Positions 1,341 to 61,614 of a DNA stretch of 64,000 nt are shown one piece after another. The stretch comes from Bdellovibrionales bacterium (lineage in GTDB: Bacteria; Bdellovibrionota; Bdellovibrionia; Bdellovibrionales; JAUICD01), in the NCBI GenBank assembly GCA_965203275.1, contig OZ241865.1, forward strand, positions 1,344,001 to 1,408,000, read 5' to 3'. A model generated the notes under the pieces. It was not told where the DNA came from and did no database searches. It saw only the letters and a list, made by a program, of their open reading frames with translations. Position 1 is the stretch's first letter. Each line of letters opens with the position of its first letter. A program made the position numbers and the translations under genes.

Positions 1341-1415
1341 AGAGCAATGTCTCAAAAGTGGCCAGAGGCCAGACCACTTTTAGTGAAACAGAGGTCACTT
1401 TACTTTTAGTGGAAA
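1341..1415 (-). repeat. Partial module A plus a stacked ~26-nt A fragment that supplies the last codons and stop of the Rpn gene
   Basis: Reverse strand reads TTCCACTAAAAGTAAAGTGACCTCTG|TTTCACTAAAAGTGGTCTGGCCTCTGGCCACTTTTGAGACATTGCTCT. Confidence 0.85.
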
Positions 1416-8379: not shown

Positions 8380-9447
8380 CTATTGTGAAACATCATCATC
8401 CTTTTTGTGATCTTTCTGTGTTGTTTCTTTTAATTCTGGCTGAGTGTCCTTTGACTCATCTAGTTGATCTTCTTTAGATTCTAGCTGAGTGTCCTTTGAC
8501 TCATCTAGTTGATCTTCTTTAGATTCTAGCTGAGTGTCCTTTGACTCATCTAGTTGATCTTCTTTAGATTTTAGCTGAGTGTCCTTTGACTCATCTAGTT
8601 GATCTTCTTGAGATTTTAGTTGAGTGTCCTTTGACTCATCTAGTTGATCTTCTTTAGATTTTAGTTGAGTGTCCTTTGACTCATCTAGTTGATCTTCTTG
8701 AGATTTTAGTTGAGTGTCCTTTGACTCATCTAGTTGATCTTCTTTAGATTTTAGTTGAGTGTCCTTTGACTCATCTAGTTGATCTTCTTGAGATTTTAGT
8801 TGAGTGTCCTTTGACTCATCTAGTTGATCTTCTTTAGATTTTAGTTGAGTGTCCTTTGACTCATCTAGTTGATCTTCTTGAGATTTTAGTTGAGTGTCCT
8901 TTGACTCATCTAGTTGATCTTCTTGAGATTTTTTTGTTGTAGCCCTATCTTCTGAACTTGATTTAGATTTTTGAGACGATGTAGAATGACTCTCTTTTAC
9001 AACAGAGGCTTTTGCTACTTCTGCCTTTGCTGTTTTAGAAGCCTGTTTTGTTGTTGTTTCCTCTTGAGTGTCCTTTGGCATAGACTTTGCTTTCGAGTCC
9101 TGACCAGAAGATTTTGCACTTTGTTTCTCTGAAGAAGATGCTTTTTTATCTTTTTTGAGGTTTTTACCAGGACTCTTTTGAAGATATTGAGGAATATCTA
9201 ATGAAGGATTTTGCTGTTCAAAAATAAGTCTTTGAACCCTCAAAGAAGGCCTTGCCCCTCGATTAATCCATTGATTAGCTTTTTCTAAGTCAATGACAAA
9301 TTTCTTCTTAGCTCCTTTTTGCGAAGGAACATAATGACCTAAAACTTCAATGACATTGCTGTTTCTCCATCGCCTTTGATCTGCCACTGTAACGCGATAT
9401 TTAGCTGCTTTTTTTGCTCCATAGCGAGATAAACGGATAACTACCAT
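8380..9447 (-). CDS. rpsP: 30S ribosomal protein S16 with long low-complexity and tandem-repeat C-terminal extension
   Basis: MVVIRLSRYGAKK..YRVTVAD.R..R....IEVLGHY...W..GA.PS..V S16 core, followed by ~270 extra residues. Confidence 0.93.
   Translation of the reverse strand: MVVIRLSRYGAKKAAKYRVTVADQRRWRNSNVIEVLGHYVPSQKGAKKKFVIDLEKANQWINRGARPSLRVQRLIFEQQNPSLDIPQYLQKSPGKNLKKDKKASSSEKQSAKSSGQDSKAKSMPKDTQEETTTKQASKTAKAEVAKASVVKESHSTSSQKSKSSSEDRATTKKSQEDQLDESKDTQLKSQEDQLDESKDTQLKSKEDQLDESKDTQLKSQEDQLDESKDTQLKSKEDQLDESKDTQLKSQEDQLDESKDTQLKSKEDQLDESKDTQLKSQEDQLDESKDTQLKSKEDQLDESKDTQLESKEDQLDESKDTQLESKEDQLDESKDTQPELKETTQKDHKKDDDVSQ
8439..8933 (-). repeat. 11 x 45-bp coding tandem repeat (KS[Q/K]EDQLDESKDTQL) in rpsP
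   Basis: Counted in translation; DNA unit TGAGTGTCCTTTGACTCATCTAGTTGATCTTCTT[G/T]AGATTTTAGT. Confidence 0.95.
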
Positions 9448-22297: not shown

Positions 22298-23716
22298 ATG
22301 AGTGACAAATCTATACCTACATTTGAAAGCATTATGAAAACTCTCAGTGAAATAGCGAAAAGTCAGAAAGAATCAGAGCGACAAAGCAGAGAAAGTGAGA
22401 AAAAACTACAAAAACTGCAAAAACAGCGAGCAGAAGATGAGAAAAAAATACAAAAACTACGAGAACAACGAGAGGAAGATGAGAGAAAAAGACAAAAGCA
22501 ACGAGAGGAAGATGAAAGAAAAAGACAAAAACAACGAGCAGAAGATGAGAAAAAGCGAGCAGAAGATGAGAAAAAAATACAAAAACTACGAGAACAACGA
22601 GAGGAAGATGAAAGAAAAAGACAAAAGCAACGAGAGGAAGATGAAAGAAAAAGACAAAAACAACGAGAGGAAGATGAGAAAAAACTACAAAAACTAAGAG
22701 AACAACGAGAGGAAGATGAAAGAAAAAGACAAAAACAACGAGAGGAAGATGAGAAAAAACTACAAAAACAACGAGAGGAAGATGAGAAAAAACTACAAAA
22801 ACAACGAGAGGAAGATGAGAAAAAACTACAAAAACTAAGAGAACAACGAGAGGAAGATGAGAGAAAAAGACAAAAACAACAAGAAGAAGATGAGAAAAAA
22901 CTACAAAAACAACGAGAGGAAGATGAGAAAAAACTACAAAAACAACGAGAGGAAGATGAGAAAAAACTACAAAAACTAAGAGAACAACGAGAGGAAGATG
23001 AGAGAAAAAGACAAAAACAACAAGAAGAAGATGAGAAAAAACTACAAAAACAACGAGAGGAAAATGAGAAAAAACTACAAAAACTAAGAGAACAACGAGA
23101 GGAAGATGAGAAAAAAATGAAAGAGAGAGAAAAAGAACATGAAAAAGCTAAAAAAGAAATGGCAGAAATAAGTCAGAAACTCAAAGATATTTCTGAACAG
23201 CAGATAATATCCGCAAATATCAGAGATAAAGAATATAAAAAAATTTCCAGACAATTTGGTAAGTGGGGTAACGAGTTAGGTTACATTGTAGAAAGTACAG
23301 TTGAAAGTAATTTAAAAGAAATTCTCAATAAAAGAAACATGAATATCATTAGAGTTATTAAAAATGTGGGTGGTAGAAGTTATGATGGGAGTGATGAAGA
23401 TTGGGAATTTGATTTTATTGCCCTTGGCAGAAAGGCCATTGTAGTGGTGGAAGCTAAATCAACTCTTGAGATTAAGGAGGTAAAACGTTTTCTACAAAAA
23501 TTAAGAAACATCAATAAATGGTGTCCTCATTATAGAGGTTTTAAAGTTTATGGTGGAGTGGCTTACTTAAAAGACAAAGAAAAGGCAGCTTTATTTGCTC
23601 AAGGGCAAGGTTTGTTTGTGATTCATGCAGTAGGAGATGCTGCAAAAATTAAGAATCCCAATCCATGGACACCAAAAGAAATTATCCAAGCTTCATTTAA
23701 TATGACTCCAGCTTAG
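22298..23716 (+). CDS. Coiled-coil repeat protein with C-terminal PD-(D/E)XK nuclease-like domain (DUF3782-like)
   Basis: LQKQREEDEKK-type repeats, then WGNELG..VE, EFDFIA..VVVEAKSTL, YGGVAYL, A..QGLFVI. Confidence 0.7.
   Translation: MSDKSIPTFESIMKTLSEIAKSQKESERQSRESEKKLQKLQKQRAEDEKKIQKLREQREEDERKRQKQREEDERKRQKQRAEDEKKRAEDEKKIQKLREQREEDERKRQKQREEDERKRQKQREEDEKKLQKLREQREEDERKRQKQREEDEKKLQKQREEDEKKLQKQREEDEKKLQKLREQREEDERKRQKQQEEDEKKLQKQREEDEKKLQKQREEDEKKLQKLREQREEDERKRQKQQEEDEKKLQKQREENEKKLQKLREQREEDEKKMKEREKEHEKAKKEMAEISQKLKDISEQQIISANIRDKEYKKISRQFGKWGNELGYIVESTVESNLKEILNKRNMNIIRVIKNVGGRSYDGSDEDWEFDFIALGRKAIVVVEAKSTLEIKEVKRFLQKLRNINKWCPHYRGFKVYGGVAYLKDKEKAALFAQGQGLFVIHAVGDAAKIKNPNPWTPKEIIQASFNMTPA
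22400..23120 (+). repeat. Purine-rich coding tandem repeats (33/42-bp units)
   Basis: Repeated CAACGAGAGGAAGATGAGAAAAAACTACAAAAA variants. Confidence 0.9.
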
Positions 23717-24986: not shown

Positions 24987-25235
24987 TGGACATTGTCTTA
25001 AATAGGCTAAGTCTTACATTTATGACTCTTATACTGTTTATGCCTTGGAACATTTGAAAAGGGCAGTCACATTGTGTTTATACGGGATCTAGGATTTAGG
25101 ATCCGGCAGTCAGGCATCAGAAAGAACTTTTTCCTTAACATTTCACTCAAAAAGTGAAAAAATTTTAAACACACTTTATGCGAATCTAAACAAAAGTCAT
25201 AAAAATAAAACAATTATCGCTCTTTCATATCAAAT
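24929..25235 (+). repeat. Left copy of 307-bp direct repeat flanking the IS
   Basis: GACGTACTTT...CATATCAAAT, apparently identical to 27201-27507. Confidence 0.95.
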
Positions 25236-27200
25236 CCTGAGTTTGACAGTTGGAAAAATAAAGTTGAGTAAAATCAGTAGGTTATGAGTCGAAAGGGATT
25301 TTGTGCCACTAGGTTTTTGTTTTTGTGGCAGAATTTTGAACAATCTATTAAGATTGTGATTGTGATGATTCTACTTTTAATTGTTTTGCTGGTATTTTGA
25401 CTCCTATTGCTTTAAATACATCTGTTGCATGACCTGTGATATCTGTTCTCATCCACAGAGTCTTATCTTTTAATGTGACAGGCACTGCTCTGACTTCTTT
25501 TAACTTTAACATTGCTTCTGAAACACTCAGTTGCCTTGGTTGTTTATTCTGACCTGTCATTAATTCTTCTCTACATTTAATACCTTTTTCATAAAGCTTC
25601 TTGCTTAAATAAGCTTCACAAAGATATGATATAAAACATAATACTAAGTGACCTAATATCCTCTTGTCTGTCCAATGAAACATCGGACGAGTCTTGAGAA
25701 AACCTTTTATATCTCTAAATGCTTTCTCTACCTTCCAAAGATGTTTATAATTTAATATAAGCTCCTTAGAGGATAAGTTTTTTGCATTTGTAATAATTCC
25801 AAAAAATCCATCTTGTTGTTCTGATGCTTTTATTGCATCTTCATTTAATTGAGGCTTGTCTTTTGAAGTAGGATGACTTATGTATTTTTTGTAATTCATA
25901 TTAGATATAAAGTCTTTGGGATTAATTGTCTTTTTAGATAATTTTGTTTGCAGTTTAGATAAAATATCTTCTCTTAATTTTTTATCTCTTTCTGCTCGCT
26001 TTCTTGACCAACCGATGATACAACGACGACCTTTATGCTCTGTCTCATAGATAGCTAAGTCATCATTAACCCATTTAAAATTCTTTAGATTATATATCTC
26101 CTTAAAACGATCTTTTAATAAACCTAACTTTAATCCTACTATAAACTCATGACCTTCTTCCTTAAATAAATTTAGATTTTCATTAGAAAATAATCCACGA
26201 TCTCCTACTAATATAAATCTTCTTATGTTAAACTTCTCTTTTAACTTTGAGATCGCTTCTGGCATTGTTTTACCTTCATAAGTATTACCAGGATAAACAT
26301 CAAAGCCTAACGGCATACCTTCCGTATCTACTAACAAGCCAAATACAACTTGTGTGCAATCACTTCTTTTTTCTTTACTGTAACCAAATCTTCGAAGATC
26401 GTCTAAATCTTCTCTTGTACTCTCAAATCTCAAGGTGGTTAGATCATATAAAACAACATCACATTGATTAAAAAGATTCATCTGAGCTTTATTTTTATTG
26501 TAGAGTTTCTTTTCTATATCTTCCTTATGTTCTGCTAGAATATCTAAAGAACGATAAATATCCTGAAGATGAAGTTCTTTTTCTAAAAAGTCCGGATAAA
26601 ATAACTTCTGCCAGTGTGAAAAAACTTGCAGTTTAGAACATGGCTCTACAAATCGACTTATAACCAATGTGAAAACAATCTTAACAAAATCAAATCGCAG
26701 TTTAGGATGTTTTTTCTTCAAATCTGCTAATAATTCATAGAGGTTTAACTGTTTAAAAATAGCATCTATAATAAGCAGAGGACCTAAGATAAATGTATTT
26801 TTTATATCAATTTTTTTAGCTAATTGATTCGCAGAGATGATATCTAAATGACGGCTGATCAGTTCAGATAAGTCTTCTAATCGATCATCTTTAGACTTTC
26901 CTAAAGACATAAGTGTTCTATGGTGACTTTTACCATTTTTCCAATAGCTTTCAGCTATTTGATAGTAAGTTTGTCCTCTAGAGTTTTTTGTTTTCTTTAT
27001 GAACATAAGAATATACTAGAACAAAAATACAAAAAATCAAGAAAAAAACGACTTTTTAACGCACTGCATTCGAATTTTGTGCCACTAGGATTTTTTACAA
27101 AATCCCAAAAATTCAAGCTTGCAAATCCCTCTAACACCTATAAATAAAGCATTCTTAAAAAAAAGATATCCACATTTGCAAATCAACTGTCAAACTCAGG
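25236..27200 (-). mobile_element. IS1634-family insertion sequence (1965 bp)
   Basis: Perfect 17-bp terminal inverted repeats CCTGAGTTTGACAGTTG (25236-25252) / CAACTGTCAAACTCAGG (27184-27200); single DDE transposase; long flanking direct repeat. Confidence 0.92.
25348..27006 (-). CDS. IS1634-family DDE transposase
   Basis: YDLTTLRFES, GYSKEKRSD..QVV.GL, GN..E..T, GDRGL, Y..LW.VEKAFR..K..L..RP.FHW...RI.GH...CF. Confidence 0.93.
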   Translation of the reverse strand: MFIKKTKNSRGQTYYQIAESYWKNGKSHHRTLMSLGKSKDDRLEDLSELISRHLDIISANQLAKKIDIKNTFILGPLLIIDAIFKQLNLYELLADLKKKHPKLRFDFVKIVFTLVISRFVEPCSKLQVFSHWQKLFYPDFLEKELHLQDIYRSLDILAEHKEDIEKKLYNKNKAQMNLFNQCDVVLYDLTTLRFESTREDLDDLRRFGYSKEKRSDCTQVVFGLLVDTEGMPLGFDVYPGNTYEGKTMPEAISKLKEKFNIRRFILVGDRGLFSNENLNLFKEEGHEFIVGLKLGLLKDRFKEIYNLKNFKWVNDDLAIYETEHKGRRCIIGWSRKRAERDKKLREDILSKLQTKLSKKTINPKDFISNMNYKKYISHPTSKDKPQLNEDAIKASEQQDGFFGIITNAKNLSSKELILNYKHLWKVEKAFRDIKGFLKTRPMFHWTDKRILGHLVLCFISYLCEAYLSKKLYEKGIKCREELMTGQNKQPRQLSVSEAMLKLKEVRAVPVTLKDKTLWMRTDITGHATDVFKAIGVKIPAKQLKVESSQSQS

Positions 27201-27507
27201 GACGTACTTTAATATTGTTGAAAACACAGTACTCACTTCCACACCAAACCATCATTAATGGACATTGTCTTAAATAGGCTAAGTCTTACATTTATGACTC
27301 TTATACTGTTTATGCCTTGGAACATTTGAAAAGGGCAGTCACATTGTGTTTATACGGGATCTAGGATTTAGGATCCGGCAGTCAGGCATCAGAAAGAACT
27401 TTTTCCTTAACATTTCACTCAAAAAGTGAAAAAATTTTAAACACACTTTATGCGAATCTAAACAAAAGTCATAAAAATAAAACAATTATCGCTCTTTCAT
27501 ATCAAAT
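27201..27507 (+). repeat. Right copy of 307-bp direct repeat flanking the IS
   Basis: Matches 24929-25235. Confidence 0.95.
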
Positions 27508-36839: not shown

Positions 36840-36962
36840 CCCGGGATCCGGGATCAGGCAATCTGGCATCCCGGGATCTGATGCCGGGCTACCGGATGCC
36901 AGATCCCGGATCCCGGATCCCAGATCCCGGATCCCGGATCCCAGATCCCGGATCCCGGGATC
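36840..36962. repeat. Heptamer (GATCCCG/GATCCGG) arrays in opposite polarity
   Basis: CCGGGATCCGGGATC..ATCTGGCATCC ... GGATGCCAGATCCCGGATCCCGGATCCC. Confidence 0.9.
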
Positions 36963-37163: not shown

Positions 37164-40153
37164 ATGAAGTTTATTCAACAGCTCAACGATCTAACTATCT
37201 GTAGATTGTTTACATGCTCTATCTGTTTATTTGTGATCGGTTGTTCCTTTATTGCTTGCGGAGAAGCTCCTATGCAAGAACATGGAGCTTTAGACCCTGA
37301 AGCCCAAAGGCGACTTGCTAACCCAGAAGAAAATCGGGAAATATTACGCAGAGAACTTGAAGAAATACAAAAGAGAATGCAAGAGGCTGCTCAGGAGGCT
37401 CAGGAAGCTCAAGAGGCTGAAAGCCAAGACTCGTCTACCCCCCCCCCCCCCCCCCCCCCTCCAAATCTTTAACCTCACAAGCTATTGAAACTATTGAGTT
37501 ATCTAGTAGTCAACCTGAAAAAAGTGGATGGTTTTCGTCATCTTGGAACTATCTTGTAGATAAAGGGTTTAGTGCAACACAAGCTGTAAAAGACTACGTC
37601 AATGACTTCACTACTGACGATGCAGAGAACAACACAATGAACCCTCGAGAATATCAAGAGTTATGGGAGAAGATAAAAAAGTGGGAATCAAGAACTTTTA
37701 AAGATCGAGAACTCATGAGAAAAAACAAAAGTATATACAACAAATTCATGAGTTTGCCTCCAGGTAACAAAGTGTTGATTGAAGATACAATATACGATTT
37801 AGATGAAATGCCAGATGATCTACGCACGGCTATACAAAAAATAGAATCTGAAGATGATACCTTAAAAGAAGAAATTGCTCAAGCGTTATATCCTTTCCTT
37901 TGGATTCAGTCTGTGGATGTAACTAATGTCAACAATGATTCAATATTACGTCCCATGCCATTACCTTTCACCCTATATCGGAGTATGCATGATGACAATT
38001 ATACTCCACAAGAAATTATAAATGCCATACAAGCCTTGATCACACTGGGAGCTGATGTAAACAAAAAAGAAAGGAATCGAATTAAGATGAAGCCTTTACA
38101 TTATGTAATAGATAATATGAGGGATGAGAGGTTAGCATTAGAAATAGCTAAAATATTGATTGATGCTGGAGCTGATGTTAATTATAGCGATAGACAGGAG
38201 TGGACAGCTCTGCACTGTGCTAGCCGGAGAGGATTTTTAGAAATAGTTAAGCTATTACTAGATCATGGAGCTGATATAGATACACAAGGAAGGGAGTGTA
38301 ATATCCTATGTCGCACAATAAGGATAGCAAGAGACCCAGACAAGAGAAAACCACAACATCAAGAGATTATAGAGTTATTGACTGCTGTTGAACAAGAACA
38401 AGAAAAAAAAGATGAAGGAAAAATTTTTCTTCGTCCCATGCTCACTCCAACCGAACAAGAAGAACAAGAACAAGAAGAAAGATGGAAGGCAAAAAAATGG
38501 AGAAGAGAGTATAACATTGATCAACGTGTCCAACGCTGGACTTCTATGACTCCTGAACAAAGAGCAACAAGTAAATTAACAGATTTTTCTCTTAGCTTTA
38601 CCACATCTCGTCGATGTAGAAGAGAATTCCCTGCAAGCAGACAATGCCTTAAAGTAGAGTTTTTGAGAGATGGTTATAAACAAACTTTTATTTATCCTTC
38701 ACCTATATTAACTGAAGATGAAAGAACTGCACTTCAAACAGTTGAACAAGAGCAAGAGGAATATAATGCACAAAAGGAAAGAGAAGCAGTAGAAAGAAGG
38801 GAACGAGAAGCAAGAGAAAGAATGGAACGAGAAGCGAGAGAAAGAAGGGAACGGGAAGCAAGAGAAAGAAGGGAACGAGAAGCAGCAGAAAGAAGGGAAC
38901 GAGAAGCAAGAGAGCGGAGGGCAAGAGCAGAGCAACCAAATCAAGGGCAACGAACAAGCACCCAGTCTGATCCAAGAAGTCAATGGGCTGCTGATAGAGT
39001 CCGTTTAACTCAAGTCAGAGCAGCTTTAGAAGCTCCTCATGTCAATGCTTATGCTATCACACATGTTAAGCTTTTCCCTATTGCTAAACCACGCTTAGAC
39101 CCCTACCCATTTACAAGAGACGAAGATATGGCACATCTGTCTTTGAAAAACAGAAATGACGGATTTACCTTAGAAGTATTTAACCCTGAGCAACCAGAGC
39201 AGAGCAAAGTTGTTCTAGCTCAAAAAGTACATGATATTGAAATGAGCATTAGGTGTCATAATCAACTCAATTGTAATGAAAATATTCTTCGTTATAGATC
39301 TAATGTTGATCAAGATAGCCAGTGGCAAACGTATCCTCTTTCTAACTTGATAGGATATGAGAATGGCAACAATGTTTATCAGATGAGAATAATCTCAGAT
39401 AAAGAGCATGGAGATACTCAAGTGAGATGGGGTACAGGTCGCCGTCGAGTGAATAGATATTATAGAGGTCACTTTCGTATAGCTATTACTAAGAGAAAAA
39501 GCAATGACATGATGGAATGGAGCTTGATCAATGATGTTCCCGTAGAACAATATCTTCGTTCAGTTGTTCCGGGTGAGATGCCATTGACAGATGATCAAAG
39601 TGCTTCAAGGACTGCCTTTGCTGCTTTAAAGGCTCAAGTGATAGCAGCCAGGTCATATCTTTTCAGTAAGATCAAAGAGAATAGACATGTCAAAGCAATG
39701 GGATGGGATGTGGATCCTACAACATGGTTTCAATCTTATCCAGGTTCTAGAGAAGTAAGAAGTGGCAGAGTAAGAAACAGAGAATTTTTAAGAAGCGATG
39801 AAGCAGTGGAAGCCACAGTGGGTGTGATCCTCACATATCGAGGACAGTTAGCTATGACAGAATATCATGCTTGCCGAAGAGATAGCACAAGAACAAGTAA
39901 CAGTCTACCTATATTTAGAGCAAAGAAGATTCCAAGTGGAGAGAGATGTGGTCGTTACAGAGGTGAAGGAGGTCATGGTCGTGGTTTATCTCAGAGAGGT
40001 GCTATGTGGCTAGCCCGTGTAGGATGGGACGATGAAGAATCACCTACAGAAAATGCCGCCAAGCCTGAAGATGTTACAGAGCCATGGAGTCATGTTGATA
40101 TTCTTCGCTACTTTTATCACGGAGTCAATGTCCAAAATCACCACGAGCTTTGA
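37164..40153 (+). CDS. Lipoprotein with ankyrin repeats, coiled coil and SpoIID/LytB lytic transglycosylase domain; frameshifted at C22 tract 37438-37459
   Basis: Lipobox FIAC in ORF 37164; the frame of ORF 37637 is open back to the poly-C; ankyrin motifs (LI..GADVN, TALHCA..G..EIVKLLLDHGAD); SpoIID motifs (IN.VP.EQYL.SVVP.EMP, ALKAQ.IAARSY, GHGRGLSQ.GA, IL.YFY.G). Confidence 0.82.
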
Positions 40154-45675: not shown

Positions 45676-46671
45676 CTAAAAAATATTTTGATAAGCAGGT
45701 GAAGAAAGAATTGGAAATTTCTTAAGTTCTTTTTGTCTTATTTGAGAGATCATGTTTTTTTGATCTTGTCTCCAAATCAAATGTATGTGAGGGCCAGCAT
45801 CCATACTGACCAAAGGTCCATCTTTATTTTTCTTCCAAAACTTATCTAAAATATTTAATACTTCAACTGTTTGAGGTTTTAAATAAGAAAAGCTAGGGAT
45901 AGATGTATGAAATAAATCCATCATATCTAAAAACTCCTCTTGAACTGTCTGATAAAGGCCTTTCCAATTGTTTTGCTTCAGATAAGTTATAAAAGTAGAG
46001 AGACGTTTTTCTGCCCTTTGAGGTCTACCTCTATAAAGAGGACTACTTAAAACCATTCTGTGAGCTTGTGAAGAAGATATATGTTTCTTTTCAGATGAAA
46101 CCAAAACAGCTATATGAATCCAATCTTTTGGAAAATCTATAGGCAGAAGTTCCCCATCAGGTCTCCATAAACATCCTGGGAAAAAGCTCCGACAGGCAGA
46201 CCCAGAACCTCGACGGCTTAAATGAGCCATTTCCATATCACTTAATTGTTGATCTGCTATTTCTTTCAAAGCTTTCGCAAAAGCTTTTGTTAAAGCTGCA
46301 AAACTACTAGCAGAGCTAGCAAGCCCTATATCAGCAGGGAAGTTATTATGAGATCGCACAATAAAAGGTTGCTTAACCCTAAATCGATATTTAAGATATT
46401 CTAAGTGTTTTAAAAATCGCTTCTGTCCTTGTGTAGAAATGCCTTTCAAGCATTGAAACTGTCCTCCTGCAATATGAAAAGAAGATTGACTTTGACTTGC
46501 TAAAAAAATATCTTGTTGAGATGTTTTATTAATCTCTAACTGAACAGTGCTGGTTAAATGATCTAAAGTCCAAGAAAGTGATGAATGTGTAGGGGTATTT
46601 TCTCTATCAGAAGCTTTACCCATGTATTTGATAAAGGCAAGATTGGCTGGGGCTTGAGCTTGAAAATTCAT
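45676..46671 (-). CDS. mvaD: Diphosphomevalonate decarboxylase
   Basis: PANLA.IKY.GK, NNFP..GLASSAS.FAAL, SR.GSGSACRS, MDAGP. Confidence 0.92.
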   Translation of the reverse strand: MNFQAQAPANLAFIKYMGKASDRENTPTHSSLSWTLDHLTSTVQLEINKTSQQDIFLASQSQSSFHIAGGQFQCLKGISTQGQKRFLKHLEYLKYRFRVKQPFIVRSHNNFPADIGLASSASSFAALTKAFAKALKEIADQQLSDMEMAHLSRRGSGSACRSFFPGCLWRPDGELLPIDFPKDWIHIAVLVSSEKKHISSSQAHRMVLSSPLYRGRPQRAEKRLSTFITYLKQNNWKGLYQTVQEEFLDMMDLFHTSIPSFSYLKPQTVEVLNILDKFWKKNKDGPLVSMDAGPHIHLIWRQDQKNMISQIRQKELKKFPILSSPAYQNIF

Positions 46672-46679
46672 GATGACAC

Positions 46680-47000
46680 CTAAGTAACCTGTTTTTGAAG
46701 CCATGAAAGATAATCAGAGTTACCTTCAATTATTTTGTAAAAAACCACACACGGGCAATGATAGCTGTGCAGTTTTTTCACACATTCTATCACTGCCTTG
46801 CTATGTTTTTGGAGTGTTTTGACAATCAAAACAGATTCATTGGATTGCTCTAAAGCATTTTGTGGGTTATGATAAAAAGATTGTACGGACTCATGGATAT
46901 TCGCACAAGCAATAAGTTTATCTTTTAAAAGAGCCACAGCTAAAGCTTGTGCTTCTTTTGTATCTTTGCATGTAATATATCCTAAAATCATTTTACTCAC
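46680..47000 (-). CDS. cutA: Divalent-cation tolerance protein CutA
   Basis: EA..LA..LL..KL.AC.N, E..L..KT, LHSY..P, GN..YL.W. Confidence 0.9.
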   Translation of the reverse strand: MSKMILGYITCKDTKEAQALAVALLKDKLIACANIHESVQSFYHNPQNALEQSNESVLIVKTLQKHSKAVIECVKKLHSYHCPCVVFYKIIEGNSDYLSWLQKQVT

Positions 47001-47134
47001 TTATTTTGTGTTTATTTTGCGTTTATTTTGTGTTTTTAAATATGAATTCTTTTGTTCATTAACAAAATTCAAAAAACATAATATAAATTATTTATACAAA
47101 CCAATAGCATTAGAGTCAATAGTCATTTGTTTTG

Positions 47135-47514
47135 TTTCTCTAAAAGTGGTCTGACCTCTGTCTCACTAAAAGTAAACCAACCTCTGTTTCACTCAAAGTG
47201 AACTGGCCTCTGTTTCACTAAAAGTGGTCTGACCTCTGGTCACTTTCTGGTTGCCAGCCGAAGGCTATCGTTCACTCAAAGTGAACTGGCCTCTGGCCAC
47301 TTTTGGACAATGACCGCAAAGGCTTTCGCCTTTGACAAAATGGTCATTGTCTCAAAAGCCTGTTCACTTTGAGTAAGGAGGATCTCTTCGTCTCTTGACA
47401 CGATATTAAGGAAACAAGAGTTTATTTCACGTCGATAAAATGATCATCGCCTAGAAAGCCTGACCACTTTTAGTAGGGAGGATCTCCTCATTTTTTAACA
47501 CCATGTTAAGGAAA
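47135..47514 (+). repeat. Stack of module A fragments: three 26-nt heads, a half copy, a full A + tail and a right-half A + tail
   Basis: Units 47135-47160, 47161-47186, 47187-47212 each end CCTCTG; 47213-47270 ends in the P4 loop; full copy 47271-47414; right half 47432-47514. Confidence 0.92.
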
Positions 47515-47527
47515 CAAGATTTCTTTC

Positions 47528-47677
47528 TGATGCCGGCTTGCCGGACTGCCGGATTCCAGATGCCGGATTCCGGATTGACATGATGTTAGGGAAATAAGAT
47601 GTTCACTCCCGGGATCTGGGATCCGGCAATCTGGCATACCGGGAACTGATGCCGGATCCCGGGTTGCCGGATCCCAG
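47528..47677. repeat. Degenerate heptamer arrays with an internal tail-like motif
   Basis: GATGCCG/GATTCCG/GATCCCG units; TGTTAGGGAAA; TTCACTCCCGGGATC similar to 36834. Confidence 0.8.
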
Positions 47678-47751: not shown

Positions 47752-48125
47752 TTTCACTAAAAGTGGTCTAGCCTCTGGCTACTTTCTGGCGATGACCACG
47801 ATGGCTTTTGCCATCGATAAAATGGTCATCGCCTAGAAAGCCTGACCACTTTTAGTAGAAAGGATCTCTTCGTTTTTTAACACCATGTTAAGGAAAAAGT
47901 TCTTTTTTTTTGTTTTTTTATTTTTTTTAGATTCTGCGTAACCATCAAACAAAAAATAATTAGGGAGAGGATGGGGCAGTGGGAGACTGAAGATCTTCCG
48001 CAAATTGAGCTTGCTCCTTAAAAGCAAGCTCAATTGAGGACTTCGGAAGGCTCACACTGCCCTATCCTCAAATAAAAATAAAATGGAAAAAAGCAGAATC
48101 GAAGGGCGGTGGGTGGGGTTAGGGA
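47752..48125 (+). repeat. Full composite element A + tail + B
   Basis: Same order as 40154-40530; ends GGGCGGTGGGTGGGGTTAGGGA. Confidence 0.92.
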
Positions 48126-48422: not shown

Positions 48423-51400
48423 ATGTATATATACAAAAAGTTTATTTATTTAGTTTGGTTTTATTTTTCATTTGTACAAATATTTGCACAAACACTTCTG
48501 CAAAAAAATTGCATAACGCAATTAGCCTACCCCCCCCCCCCCCCCCTTAAGTCCAGGTTTTGATTGTCTTAAAAAAAATCATTTTAAAAAGTGCAAACAG
48601 CTAGGGATGGGCTTAGTAGAGATGTTGATTGTGATGACCATGCTTGCCTTAATCAGTGTAGGTACAGCATATTACTTCACACAAAGTCAAACAGTGATGC
48701 GTTCATCTGCACAAGATTCAGATTGTCAGAGCATTGCCCAATCAGGTTTAGATAGAGTTGTCTCATTAGGGACTCGTCTTTATGGATATAGAGTAGGTCA
48801 TACTGACCCTGATCTTAGATATAACCCTCTTTTTATCAAGAGAGGAACTCAAATAACAGGTAGCACTCCAGTAGCTTATCGGATTACAGATACAAGCTCT
48901 GGTAATAATTTAAGCCTTACAAAAAAATATAAGGATTTATACAAAGCATTAACAAATAACACTCCCCCTGCCCTGCTTGTGAATACAGGAGTTCCTTTAG
49001 TAAAGCTTTCTAATAGTGGCTTTATTAATATAGGTACATCTGTGTTGCTGGTTAATTCTGTGAATTTTTTGCAGTATATGTATAATTCTGACCCTGCATT
49101 TTTTAATGGTAATAGTGGCAAAGGTAAAGAATTTACCATTACCAGTAGCACCCAAGCAAGTAATAAAGTGATAGCTTCATTATGGAAGGACTATCTTAAA
49201 AAGTACAACCTTCAAAATGTGAAATTCTACATCAGGATTAACCCTGTTGATCTGAAAAATCAAAAGGTGATAGAGAGTTATTCAGGTATTAAATGTCATT
49301 ATACAAGATATAATGGTTCAAAATTTGTCTCAACAGAGATTCCTTGCCCACGTCCATCCACTCACCCGGCACATAAGTTAGTGTTGACTCATCCTAGGCT
49401 TGCTGTTTCTGGGACTTCAACCTTAAATAGCTCATCAAATTTACGCACCATAGGCAATCCTGATTTAGGATTTCAGGTGACAGTTAAGTTAAGTTATGAA
49501 AAGAATAATCAGGATTATTTTTGTAAGAGCATGCAACGATTTGCTCACCAGACTCGTTTATTGATGGAGCAGACAACTCCAATTAATGTTTCAGTGACCT
49601 CCCTTAAGAATGACTATAACAAGAATTTACTACCTAATGGTGGTCGTAAGCAGACTTCATGTGACACAGATGACATAAATGGTACAGATGGTCATAGAAA
49701 CATCACCATGGAGTTAAATTTTGATAATACAGCCGGCAGAACAACTAAGGAGTTTGGAACATTATTTTTATGTCGTGGAATACGTTGGAAGTATCCTAAA
49801 AGAGGTTGTAACAATACTGCTTCAAGTGAAAAAATATATGGACCTTGGCGGAGATGTCATGAAGTGAAATTTCCAGATCAAAGAGGTCATACAGAGTCTG
49901 TTTTATTAAATAGCAGTGGCCATGATATAAAGCTACGATTAAAATTTAATAACTTAAAGGAAGATAGAAGCTATGCCTTAGAGATTGCAGAGGTATCGCA
50001 ATTAGGTATTTCTAAACCACCTTATCAGCGTATAACAAATAGTCGCTTTTATATAGATGCTACAAGACCTACATTAATTGCAAGTATAAATGATATTGAT
50101 GTCGGTCCACCAGAAGATATGCGAAGAGGAAGATCTTATTTATATAATGGCCATACAACAAATTGGGATTTACCTGAGGTTCGGTTTAAATATAATAGTA
50201 ATTATAAAAAAGGACCTGGTTTGCAGTGCAATGACGATGCTGTTGACTTTCATGGTTGTATTATTGATGAGTTTCATCATAATTTAGGAGACTGCACTGC
50301 AACACATCAGAGAGAAGATGGTAATGGCCTCTCATCTATTACTAGTGTTACCATGACTACTGACACCTCACAACATGCTTGTAGTGGTACTTTAAGTTCG
50401 CCGATTCCACATGGTCAACAAACAGTGAAGATCACTGCCAGTGATATTTGTGGCAGTGATCCTGAGTCCAGCGATCAACTTAAATGGGATACAGACCTTC
50501 CAAATACATTTGTTGCCAGACCTTTTCCAACAAGTCCTCATTGGCTTTACCGAAATGCTAGTAATGCTAGACCAAAATATACAATTCAAACACTCGTACC
50601 AGCTTCAGGGGCGGGTACATTCCCGAAGCATTATGCAGTGACATGTTATGGAAAGCAATACGGATATCATCCAAGAAAAGATGGGAATGGAGGGAGTATT
50701 GCTTGTGAATTTTATGGCAGTCTGAATAGTAGTCACTTAGATCATGATGGTTGCAATCCTGCAGACTTCGGGGTGAAGTATCATCATATTTGTGGTCGTA
50801 ATTCTGCTGTGCAAGCAAAAAAATGGGGTGTGTATGTGGCACATCCAAGTGCTGGTGGTGGCCTTTGTGACAAAGTACCTTGTGAACCTAATTTGATATG
50901 TTGTGATAAAAGTAAAGGTACTTGTGGAACTGGAGCAAGTGTAGGTGATAAAAAATGTGCTAACAAAGTAAGCAACCCAAGGTGTACTGATCCTAAAGGA
51001 GGTACACAGTCTAAGGACGATGAAACTCCATCTGGCTGTTCACCGCTAGGCCTCTATGACTGTCATTATACTTTGCCCTGTGAAGGAGATGCAGGAGAGC
51101 TAAAAAATAGAAGAGATAATGGTGTTGCTTGTAATGAAGATGGTGGTAAACGTGAAGGCGATGGATGTACTTTTAATAGAACTGGTCAGTGTAAACATAG
51201 AAATAGTTCCATAGCCCAGGGAAATAAACACTCTCAAGGTGCTATTCAAGCACATCATGGTGGTGATTGTCATCTTAATGGTAATTCAGAAATACCATGT
51301 ACTGTTCAAGCACAGTGTAAGCAGAAATATAAATATGCAAAAAGGAGCGACTCATGTGAATATCCTGGTAACCTTCCTGATGATCCACCTATAAAAAAGG

Positions 51401-52663: not shown

Positions 52664-52963
52664 TGCACTCAAAATAAATCATGCATCTGTTTCCCTAAAA
52701 TTGAACTAGCCGTCATTTTCACTCAAAATGCATCATGCCTCTGGCATGTTTTTGGGCAATGACCGCAATGGCTTTCGCCATTGGCAAAATGGTCATTGCC
52801 TCAAAAATCTATGCATTTTGAGTAGAGGAGGATATCTTCGTTTTTTGACTACATGTTAAGGAAAATATCCTTTTAATACCAGTTAGCCCGACGGCTACCG
52901 CCGTCGACCAAAGGCTAACCGCCTCAAAAGCTTGTTCATTTTGAGTAGAGGAGGATCTCCTCG
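52664..52963 (+). repeat. Two stacked A heads, a full A + tail and a right-half A
   Basis: ..CATGCATCTG|TTTCCCTAAAATTGAACTAGCCGTCAT|TTTCACTCAAAATGCAT..; full copy 52717-52864; half copy 52880-52963. Confidence 0.88.
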
Positions 52964-60255: not shown

Positions 60256-60537
60256 TCAAAATAAATCATGCCTCTGGCATGTTTTCTGGCAGTTAGCCCA
60301 ACGGCTTATCGCCGTTGATCAAAGGCTAACTGCCTAGAAAATCCATTTATTTTGAGTAGGGAGGATCCTTTTTTTTTCTTAATACCATGTTAAGGAAAAA
60401 GTTCTTTTTAAACCCGCCAGGGCTTGGGAGGAAATTTTTTAGATGCAAAAATTCATTACAATCAATACTCTGGAACCTGATCCCGGATCCCTGATCCCGG
60501 ATCCCGGATCCCAGATCCCGGTTCCCGGATCCCGGAT
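60250..60537 (+). repeat. Module A + tail + ~80-nt extension + heptamer array (direct repeat 1 around tmk)
   Basis: Extension AAACCCGCCAGGGCTTGGGAGG...CTCTGGAACCTGATCCC shared with the 61275 copy. Confidence 0.9.
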
Positions 60538-61274: not shown

Positions 61275-61614
61275 TCTCACTCAAAATAAATCATGCCTCT
61301 GGCATGTTTTCTGGCAGTTAGCCCGACGACTACCGCCGTCGTAAAAGGCTGGCTACCTCAAAAGTCCGTTTACTTTTAGTAGGGGAGGATCCTTTTTTTT
61401 TCTTAATACCATGTTAAGGAAAAAGTTCTTTTTAAACCCGCCAGGGCTTGGGAGGAAATTTTTTAGATGCAAAAATTCATTACAATCAATACTCTGGAAC
61501 CTGATCCCAGATCCCGGATCCCGGGATCCCGGTTCCCGGATCCCAGGATCCCGGATCCCGGTTCCCGGATCCCAGGATCCCGGATCCCGGATCCCGGATC
61601 CCGGGATCCCGGAT
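61275..61614 (+). repeat. Chimeric module A + tail + extension + long heptamer array (direct repeat 2 around tmk)
   Basis: Left arms like the 60250 copy, right arms like the 36696 copy; GATCCCG array 61503-61614. Confidence 0.9.

Follow-up and report, generated by a model that had tools for sequence, protein, structure and literature searches.

We describe here a stack of repeat fragments at positions 47135-47418 of a 64,000-nucleotide stretch of DNA from a Bdellovibrionales bacterium (the window; C1:1344001-1408000 of the single-contig source genome G000, which has 2.57 Mb, 35% GC and a completeness of 90%). The units of the stack are the 5' heads of a multi-hairpin repeat of about 150 nt, whose stems are called P1 to P4. 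The 5' ends of this repeat adjoin, in constant orientation and phase, the sequence CCTYTG in the P2 hairpin of other copies, and nested loci exist in which both halves of a split resident copy flank the incoming one. The stack is best explained, at about even probability in our judgement, as the scar record of serial self-insertion by a non-autonomous hairpin repeat, whole copies of which would enter the P2 of a resident copy in one orientation, the 3' part of the resident being lost later.

The stack lies in a spacer filled with repeats, bounded by a minus-strand open reading frame (ORF) that ends at 47000 and by one on the plus strand that starts at 48607. Its units, and two further examples of the same junction in the window, are listed below (junctions are marked by ^; coordinates within a copy are those of the consensus).

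47131..47134 (+), TTTG leader or flank directly 5' of the first unit, the YTG motif found before most element 5' ends
47135..47160 (+), orphan head 1, 26 nt, P1 allele ..AAAAGTGGTC, P2 5' arm TGACC, start mutated to TTTCTC
47161..47186 (+), orphan head 2, 26 nt, P1 allele ..AAAAGTAAAC, P2 arm CAACC, start mutated to TCTCAC
47187..47212 (+), orphan head 3, 26 nt, P1 allele ..CAAAGTGAAC, P2 arm TGGCC, free of mutation
47213..47270 (+), copy 4, coordinates 1-58 (P1 5' strand, whole P2, P3 5' strand, P4 5' strand and loop)
47271..47418 (+), copy 5, intact, coordinates 1-148, P1-P4 self-complementary, tail ...ATATTAAGGAAACAAG
47419..47526 (+), 5'-truncated copy, coordinates ~59-156 from 47428, with the trailer AGTTTATTTCAC in front
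1357..1411 (-), head (3-27) followed by the next copy (1-31), junction 1388^1389 (GTGAAA^CAGAGG)
52666..52874 (+), head ending GCATCTG, then a TTCCCT-type head ending TAGCC, then GTCATT and a full GCAT-type copy, junction 52689^52690 (GCATCTG^TTTCCC)

All three heads of the stack end in CCTCTG, and their alleles differ at 3-5 positions each. The two outer heads, 1 and 2, are mutated at otherwise near-invariant positions; a mismatch count comparing the decay of outer and inner heads is confounded by alleles with a 1-nt-longer unit and was used for the window units only. Head 1, as the outermost unit, would be the oldest. Copy 4 is interrupted after ...GGCTATCG, at coordinate 58 on the 3' side of the P4 loop. 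The original prediction, made from the sequence of the window, had described three 26-nt units of different P1 allele, then a cut fourth copy and an intact copy, and direct reading and TRF (period 26, 4.1 copies at 47133-47238) bear this out. It had the units stop at CCTCTG in the P2 loop, of which the CCTCTG end stands; the exact break comes after the first G of the P2 3' arm (TCT loop plus G) and is strictly not within the loop. The two other window junctions that it named were both read directly. The junction 12-mer CCTCTGTTTCAC, at no more than one mismatch, was found 4 times in the window against 0.25 expected, a number reached by none of 100 shuffles. As single-stranded DNA (ssDNA), the intact copy 5 is predicted to fold at -40.6 kcal/mol (z -9.2), with a P1 of 12 bp, a P2 of 5 bp with a 3-nt loop and a long P3/P4 arm, and the head stack alone gave no notable fold (z -0.65).

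To define the family, 621 full-length copies were retrieved with a regular expression (modal length 144 nt from TTCAC to GGAAA), and the 588 of these that are 140-148 nt long were aligned into a 157-column profile. The whole genome was parsed with this profile by a Viterbi procedure with jumps allowed between any positions, on both strands; the parse replaced a k-mer segmentation that was fragmented because P1 is palindromic. It returned 2624 segments of at least 14 nt, amounting to 7.3% of the genome: 693 full copies, 622 with an intact 5' and a truncated 3' end, 679 with a truncated 5' and an intact 3' end, and 630 truncated at both ends. The stems covary between copies, and the loops and joiners are conserved. 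Among 527 dispersed pairs at least 96% identical, the alignment started at -5 to +2 in 359 and ended at 141-148 in 249, so that the recently homogeneous unit is about 150 nt long (about -4 to +147). The element thus extends from a short TTG-type leader and TTCAC to ...GTTAAGGAAA, followed by a variable trailer of 10-25 nt. In the 588 copies the leader has G at -2 in 339 and T at -3 in 435; about half of the isolated copies carry an NTTG or NCTG leader, and at several junction classes a leader of 5-6 nt (GTTTGT, AGTTGT, AGCTGT, GTTGG) moves along with the 5' end. No covariation was seen between the type of leader and the type of 3' end. Full copies lie in both orientations (332 plus, 361 minus), with both present in every 100-kb bin. 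A search of the 64-kb window against Rfam gave no family match, one tRNA alone reaching the gathering score.

Some variants of the family were noted as well. A minimal palindrome, TTCACTCAAAAAGTGAAA, containing only the outermost P1 bases, stands right after an inverted tail fragment ..TTCCTTAACAT (window 25143-25160 and 27406-27420), and the arrangement TAACAT^TTCAC is found in front of 56 of the 588 full copies. Tail-less copies with fully palindromic ends (TTCACT...AGTGAA) are also present. Arrays of CCGGATC/GATCCCG heptamers, of up to 15 copies, are common 3' of repeat tails (36892-36958, 47529-47576, 60479-60537 and 61503-61614) and appear to be a separate module of the same mosaic.

The P2 junction is precise. 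In a count independent of the parse, CCTYTG+K^TTCAC stood directly before 177 of 1274 strict element starts, and 177 of the 182 P2-loop junctions were in one phase, the other 5 sharing another. Between them, these 182 junctions show 110 combinations of alleles and stand in 181 different 220-nt contexts, and the base following CCTYTG is T in 154 and G in 23. The parse gave 372 junctions between an internal point of one copy and the intact 5' end of the next, with 172 at coordinates 23-28, 67 at 17-22 (a class including units ending GTCTG/GTCTA, and TAGCC followed by a full leader), 41 at 45-50, 46 at 66-91, 19 at 92-108 and few elsewhere. Coordinate 58, the P4 loop at which copy 4 is cut, accounted for 3 of the 372, all with one resident allele. 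Site-specific integration at hairpin loops, as originally proposed, thus holds for P2 and fails for P4 as a general target: tabulated over the genome, the breakpoints are not random and are enriched at P2, with no general enrichment at P4. Several of the classes outside P2 have one junction sequence and one downstream allele each (for example ..GACCGC^GTTTGTC+TCACTAAAAATA), and are best read as composites spread by descent; the recurrent break points other than P2 lie in stems or joiners and for the most part look like such composites. Both the P2 loop (CTCTG) and the site GGTCTG resemble the leader, and therefore either a YTG-specific cut or microhomology could set the junction.

The junction is also polar, as had been predicted. 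Heads ending at 23-28 numbered 193 and segments starting at 24-30 only 22, so the reciprocal product is about 9-fold rarer than the heads. Directly adjoining another intact 5' end in the same orientation were 159 of the 193 heads, and 21 ran into non-family sequence. The parse contained 164 stacks with at least two members; at the sequence level, 135 chains had two members, 8 had three and 2 had four, the window holding one of the two longest. Neighbouring units shared the P1 allele in 9 of 168 pairs, where allele frequencies would give 13% identity, and this difference of alleles in 159 of 168 pairs sustains the earlier argument against simple slippage. A second class of stacking unit, of about 19 nt and ending GTCTG/GTCTA, was also found (for example three units at 2498631), as were stacks of inverted heads at the 3' side of tail-less palindromic copies (locus 11099). 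Among 858 abutments in the same orientation, nearly all had an intact 5' or an intact 3' end on one side and internal-to-internal joins were close to zero, a matrix that insertion of whole units into residents predicts. The intact 3' ends met residents at 29-44 (133), 51-65 (40), 66-91 (76) and 109-139 (42), and joins of an intact 3' end to an internal point (306 if gaps of 6 nt or less are allowed, 427 with a limit of 12 nt) were about as common as those of the 5' type. The suggestion that the element moves with one fixed end was therefore right about the intact 5' ends and incomplete as to the 3' ends.

Serial insertion into resident copies, the core of the original prediction, found its clearest support in nested loci. 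At 358470-358929 (minus), the order is head A, head B, full copy C, remainder B, remainder A, with the P1 3' strand of each remainder complementary to its own head. At 759638, the incomer ends in ..CCTTG, and the resident sequence then picks up precisely with its P2 3' arm; with regard to a target-site duplication, at most one G is ambiguous in this one nested insertion that can be resolved precisely. In 53 of 103 head-full composites, a 5'-truncated copy including the P1 3' strand comes next, and this strand pairs 10/10 with the orphan head in 19 of the 53, compared with 12% of random pairs. Counted over all heads, a perfectly P1-complementary remainder lies downstream of 27 of 191, against 11.6 +/- 2.9 expected, and none of 1000 permutations of the head alleles reached 27. 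Full copies that close a stack agree internally: in 98 of 114 cases the best partner of the P1 3' strand is the head of the same copy, and in 5 it is an upstream head. In the window, the P1 3' strand of the truncated copy at 47419..47526 (GACCAC...) fits copy 4.

Serial self-insertion would proceed as follows. Whole copies would integrate 3' of a YTG motif, the far preferred site being CCTCTG^G of a resident P2. The 3' part of the resident would then usually be lost, leaving a 26-nt orphan head, and the likeliest route for this loss would be recombination of incomer with resident at their conserved tail modules, which form direct repeats. Such a recombination would keep the incomer's own P1 pair intact, which matches the observation. 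The next copy would enter the P2 of the newest one, and a polar pile would grow with the oldest head outermost. For the window the order would be head 1, head 2, head 3, copy 4 and copy 5, copy 5 having inserted into copy 4 close to the P4 loop, a site seldom used.

Several observations weigh against this reading. For 117 of the 191 heads, the three window heads included, there is no candidate remainder in the contiguous block; most heads being orphans, a step of remainder loss has to be assumed for the majority. The remainders that do exist take up the sequence again at coordinates ~32-45 and not at 26, so that the resident lacks 7-15 nt, comprising the P2 3' arm and part of the joiner, or has a 10-25-nt trailer in their place. 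Many types of 3' junction recur with class-specific trailers and could be composites spread by descent, not independent events. The window is affected too, as the piece after copy 5 differs from copy 4 in its P3 allele, and the junction type found there, ...GTTTAYTTCAC^GTCGATAAAATGG, has about 30 occurrences in the genome. No replichore-wide bias in orientation was seen, though origin and terminus cannot be placed from so weak a cumulative GC skew; a lagging-strand ssDNA route is consequently without support. No transposase could be assigned to the family, searches of the source genome for Y1 HUH, reverse transcriptase, TnpB, rve and IS110 all giving 0 matches. The DDE_Tnp_1 insertion sequence (IS) of the window (25236-27200, a 552-aa ORF on the minus strand, three genome copies) was considered as parent element and rejected, its perfect 17-nt inverted ends CCTGAGTTTGACAGTTG being unrelated to the repeat ends. 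Finally, no contig from four sequencing runs bridges the window array, which thus receives no confirmation from independent reads.

The large share of orphans could also be explained if the 26-nt head were itself the unit that is moved or copied, bounded by YTG^ before TTCAC and by CCTCTG^ in P2, and added at the 5' boundary of a resident after excision or after copying that is abortive or one-ended. Such a process comes near the one-ended HUH/rolling-circle idea of the original prediction, and we consider it unlikely. It would account for the 61% of P2-loop heads (117/191) that lack a remainder candidate, for the YTG motif preceding both ends of the unit, for the stacking of the ~19-nt GTCTG/GTCTA units as well, for the inverted heads stacked 3' of tail-less palindromic copies and for the 21 heads adjoining non-family sequence. 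However, remainders that match their heads are significantly more frequent than expected and lie in the nesting order that insertion of whole copies predicts, and intact 3' ends joined to internal points are left unexplained by an addition of heads only. Furthermore, 159 of 193 heads abut an element start and not one of thousands of other YTG sites, copies of the ..ATGCAT type are never recipients (0/120), and no HUH enzyme was found by a Y1 search or by a Y2 search that lacked a positive control.

That last ..ATGCAT figure belongs to a hierarchy of subfamilies. Copies standing behind a P2-loop head make up 64 of 103 of the TTCCCT..TTGAAC type, 33 of 123 for CAAAGTGAAC, 32 of 231 for AAAAGTAAAC and 25 of 216 for AAAAGTGGTC, and 0 of 120 for ..ATGCAT and 0 of 61 for AAAAATAAAC. 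These two types are nevertheless found as heads that have been interrupted, 19 and 12 times respectively. The hierarchy is read as a target preference specific to the incomer, or as age; addition of heads alone also accommodates it if the flanks of the recipients differ.

The enzyme searches gave no match for the usual candidates. The Y1 HUH transposase (PF01797; RAYT/TnpA) had 0 matches at E<=0.01 in the source genome, the same search being positive in 6 of 14 control genomes. A Y2 search had no match in the source genome and none in any control genome either. There were 0 matches to the TnpB core (PF01385) in the source genome and four relatives, the single PF07282 match lying within a 1365-aa frame, and 0 to rve (IS3) and IS110 in the source genome. 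Recombination genes that were found include 2 tyrosine recombinases, 9 resolvase-domain matches, 6 DDE_Tnp_1 matches (with a second, weaker DDE group of 3 copies) and RecA. The search for reverse transcriptase (PF00078, RVT_1) gave 0 matches in the source genome and was positive in three control genomes. Neither enzymatic route of the original prediction, HUH/rolling-circle transposition or truncated reverse transcription, is therefore borne out, with the reservation that the Y2 search has no working control. In its retro form the proposal would make the heads 5'-truncated complementary DNA (cDNA) on the complementary strand, produced by target-primed reverse transcription aborting at hairpins. 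Read on that strand, the element has its constant end on the 3' side, a trait of truncated retro-copies, and the break points do lie near hairpins. The missing RVT_1 match, the breaks at one exact nucleotide where graded ones would be expected, the heads abutting element starts and not dispersed nick sites, and the nested remainders had already put this explanation out of favour, and it is the least probable of those considered.

A process with no transposase at all would fit the negative searches. Primer-template switching, or another illegitimate RecA-independent recombination, could act at conserved islands with 2-4 nt of microhomology (CTCTG of the P2 loop with the YTG of the leader), promoted by hairpin stalling or by Rpn nucleases. 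The family is indeed strongly mosaic, with helices shuffled between alleles and conserved joiners and loops in between, YTG is common to the leader (RKTTGK) and the P2 loop, and no dedicated transposase was found. Frames of the Transposase_31/Rpn family (PF04754) are numerous: 16 in the source genome (for example C1:1531336-1532370, 888858-889379 and 1039244-1040491, outside the window), 19 in the same-genus genome G001, 17 in G003 and 0 in G002 and G005. The 343-aa frame at C1:1531336-1532370 matches TIGR01784 (Rpn family) and shows the C-terminal tetrapeptide repeats QEGR/QKGL. A segment of the repeat family lies within 100 nt of 13 of the 16 frames, compared with 262 of 1034 control ORFs, and a P2-loop head within 150 nt of 7 of the 16, compared with 64 of 1034. 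These association counts are not independent, since the frames fall into about 7 paralog groups of 93-97% nucleotide identity, some with shared flanks; several frames are cut by hairpin-repeat insertions. In several, a 26-mer that resembles an inverted head and ends in ..ATGAAA lies some 20 nt upstream of the start codon. In passages of PMC5350276, the Rpn proteins of E. coli are nucleases of little sequence specificity that raise RecA-independent recombination and leave ends usable for primer-template switching. Against such switching, one phase in 177 of 182 junctions and the 193-to-22 asymmetry would not be expected from a symmetric misalignment, and the next base is T 154 times and G 23 times, although G would lengthen the microhomology with the resident. 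RecA is present, and the Rpn genes, described in parts of PMC10400941 and PMC10400984 as toxic antiphage defence genes with intragenic antitoxins, may cluster with repeats for other reasons. We regard template switching as improbable, to the same degree as movement of the head alone.

The clustering of Rpn genes with the repeats is only a lead, both for template switching and for a reading in which an Rpn enzyme is involved directly; it is no evidence of a transposase. In the latter, the family would be moved by an unrecognised strand-transfer enzyme cutting 3' of YTG in a hairpin context (CCTCTG^ in P2, TTG^ in the leader), possibly one of the 16 Rpn/Transposase_31 nucleases of the PD-(D/E)XK type beside the stacks. 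This is a long shot, less probable than either of the two alternatives just weighed, and G003 has 17 Rpn frames and no match to the element query. If true, an enigmatic family of 'putative transposases' would gain its first sequence-specific mobile-DNA substrate, and a MITE-like repeat (MITE, miniature inverted-repeat transposable element) targeting its own hairpin would be explained.

Given that no independent read crosses the array and that such repeats are hard to assemble, local slippage duplication or an assembly artefact was considered for the window array. Short-read contigs of three runs (X9, X10 and X14) are identical to 46600-47169, a range that takes in all of unit 1 and the first 9 nt of unit 2, where they end. 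The allele differences between the units, the recurrence of the junction 177 times, the 181 distinct contexts among 182 and the presence of the junction in two other genomes all speak against such an origin, which is very improbable. A contig of run X1, labelled sponge metagenome, covers window positions 46845-47105 with 9 substitutions and an 11-nt deletion in a TTATTTTGTGT repeat; these differences in unique flank indicate that a related strain is present in that sample.

With a 150-nt copy as query, the family was found in two genomes, G001 from the same genus and G004 from a different one, and no match was obtained in the other 38 relatives searched. The G001 ortholog of the flanking 342-aa ORF is only 60% identical, and the family is accordingly old. 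G001 contains 14 instances of the exact junction motif (reversed control 0), two of them 26 nt apart, and a head-full junction is visible in G004 (L006). At the orthologous locus of G001, the downstream gene is from a multi-copy family and lacks synteny, so that no empty-site comparison is possible. One copy in G001 (C1:511961-515086, locus position ~1468) has a 14-nt insertion or duplication in the P2 loop (..GGCCTCT CGAGGCGAGCCTCT GGCC..), a further sign of a reactive loop.

The remaining features were noted in or near the same spacer:

47529..47576 (+), degenerate CCGGATT/GATGCCG heptamer-like repeats, a module often found 3' of element tails
47575..47607 (+), isolated tail fragment, coordinates 125-157
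47753..47908 (+), the following intact copy, still within this intergenic region, with leader GTTTTG and allele AAAAGTGGTC

Elsewhere in the window, the DDE_Tnp_1 IS is bracketed by a direct repeat of about 110 nt (25040-25150 and 27314-27420) containing heptamers and an inverted tail fragment of the hairpin family. Two perfect poly-C runs (37438-37459, 22 bases; 48530-48546, 17 bases), the second about 60 nt upstream of the 1336-aa ORF starting at 48607, could be phase-variable tracts. Two long tandem repeats, at 8441-8932 (45 nt, 10.9 copies, 97% match) and 22452-23091 (33 nt, 18.7 copies, A/G-rich, with higher-order periods of 108 and 141 nt), are probably coding repeats.

Elements of the IS200/IS605 group insert 3' of a short specific motif in fixed orientation, without target duplication, and have subterminal hairpins. 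Repetitive extragenic palindromic (REP) elements carry GTAG at their 5' end. The repeat described here begins with TTTCAC, not GTAG, and unlike REP it inserts at one set nucleotide of its own hairpin, with stacks of 26-nt heads left behind. With REP, the mosaic BIME clusters and the REPIN-RAYT system, as presented in portions of PMC3333891, PMC3116915 and PMC2817692, it shares hundreds of extragenic hairpin copies, mosaic clusters of modules, vertical persistence across related genomes and oriented junctions without obvious target duplication; it is of high copy number (693 full), extragenic and present in the related genomes G001 and G004. It differs in the lack of a detectable Y1 transposase gene (PF01797, 0 matches), REPs being mobilised by a RAYT (TnpA-REP) whose gene they usually flank, and in its unit of ~144-157 nt with P1-P4 and tail, where a REP is an imperfect, GC-rich palindrome of about 20-40 nt and a REPIN two inverted REPs. 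Its similarity to IS200/IS605, whose single-strand transposition is treated in sections of PMC6006769, lies in the oriented insertion 3' of a short motif without duplication (177/182 after CCTYTG; YTG before about half of the isolated copies) and in a short internal motif that could serve as an alternative end. In contrast to that group, neither a TnpA (Y1) nor a TnpB gene was found, no replication-strand bias was visible as far as the weak GC skew allows, and the YTG leader, at several junction classes, seems to move as part of the copy instead of being a flanking target.

Landing at one position of a repeated extragenic palindrome is shared with insertion sequences that target REP hairpins (IS1397 and ISKpn1 of IS3; IS621 and ISPpu9 of IS110), for which the hairpin or its sequence determines the target according to the consulted parts of PMC1525189 and PMC12288879. 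Those are autonomous elements with their own transposase, inserting into another repeat family, whereas here incomer and target belong to the same non-coding family. Frequent insertion into the same family, with multimers arising from independent insertions, is reported in excerpts of PMC5172404 for plant MITEs (rice Castaway and Gaijin; Tourist/Stowaway multimers). The plant elements are eukaryotic, with terminal inverted repeats, target-site duplications, DDE transposases and TA/TAA targets, and those excerpts mention neither a hairpin-loop target fixed to a single nucleotide nor any stacking of orphan heads. A classical MITE, as a deletion derivative of a DDE insertion sequence, would also share its terminal inverted repeats with an autonomous parent, and the repeat ends here are unrelated to the inverted ends of the window DDE IS. 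The words 'nested' and 'tandem' are both absent from a 2024 review of prokaryotic MITEs (PMC10969869), and the open-access papers searched gave no description of this family and none of orphan heads stacked in a prokaryotic repeat.

Self-targeting at one exact spot is an unusual habit for a bacterial repeat. Bacterial REP- or MITE-like repeats are usually credited to a known transposase, a RAYT or a parent IS, and here none of the usual enzymes is detectable, despite the family occupying 7% of a small genome and persisting across genera. The stacks of orphan heads, read with the oldest head outermost, would offer a relative chronology of subfamily activity. The precise junction defines a DNA substrate, the P2 hairpin ..GCCTCTGGC.. 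together with YTG, for an enzyme search, and if an Rpn-family nuclease were responsible, it would provide a concrete substrate for a widespread and poorly understood protein family.

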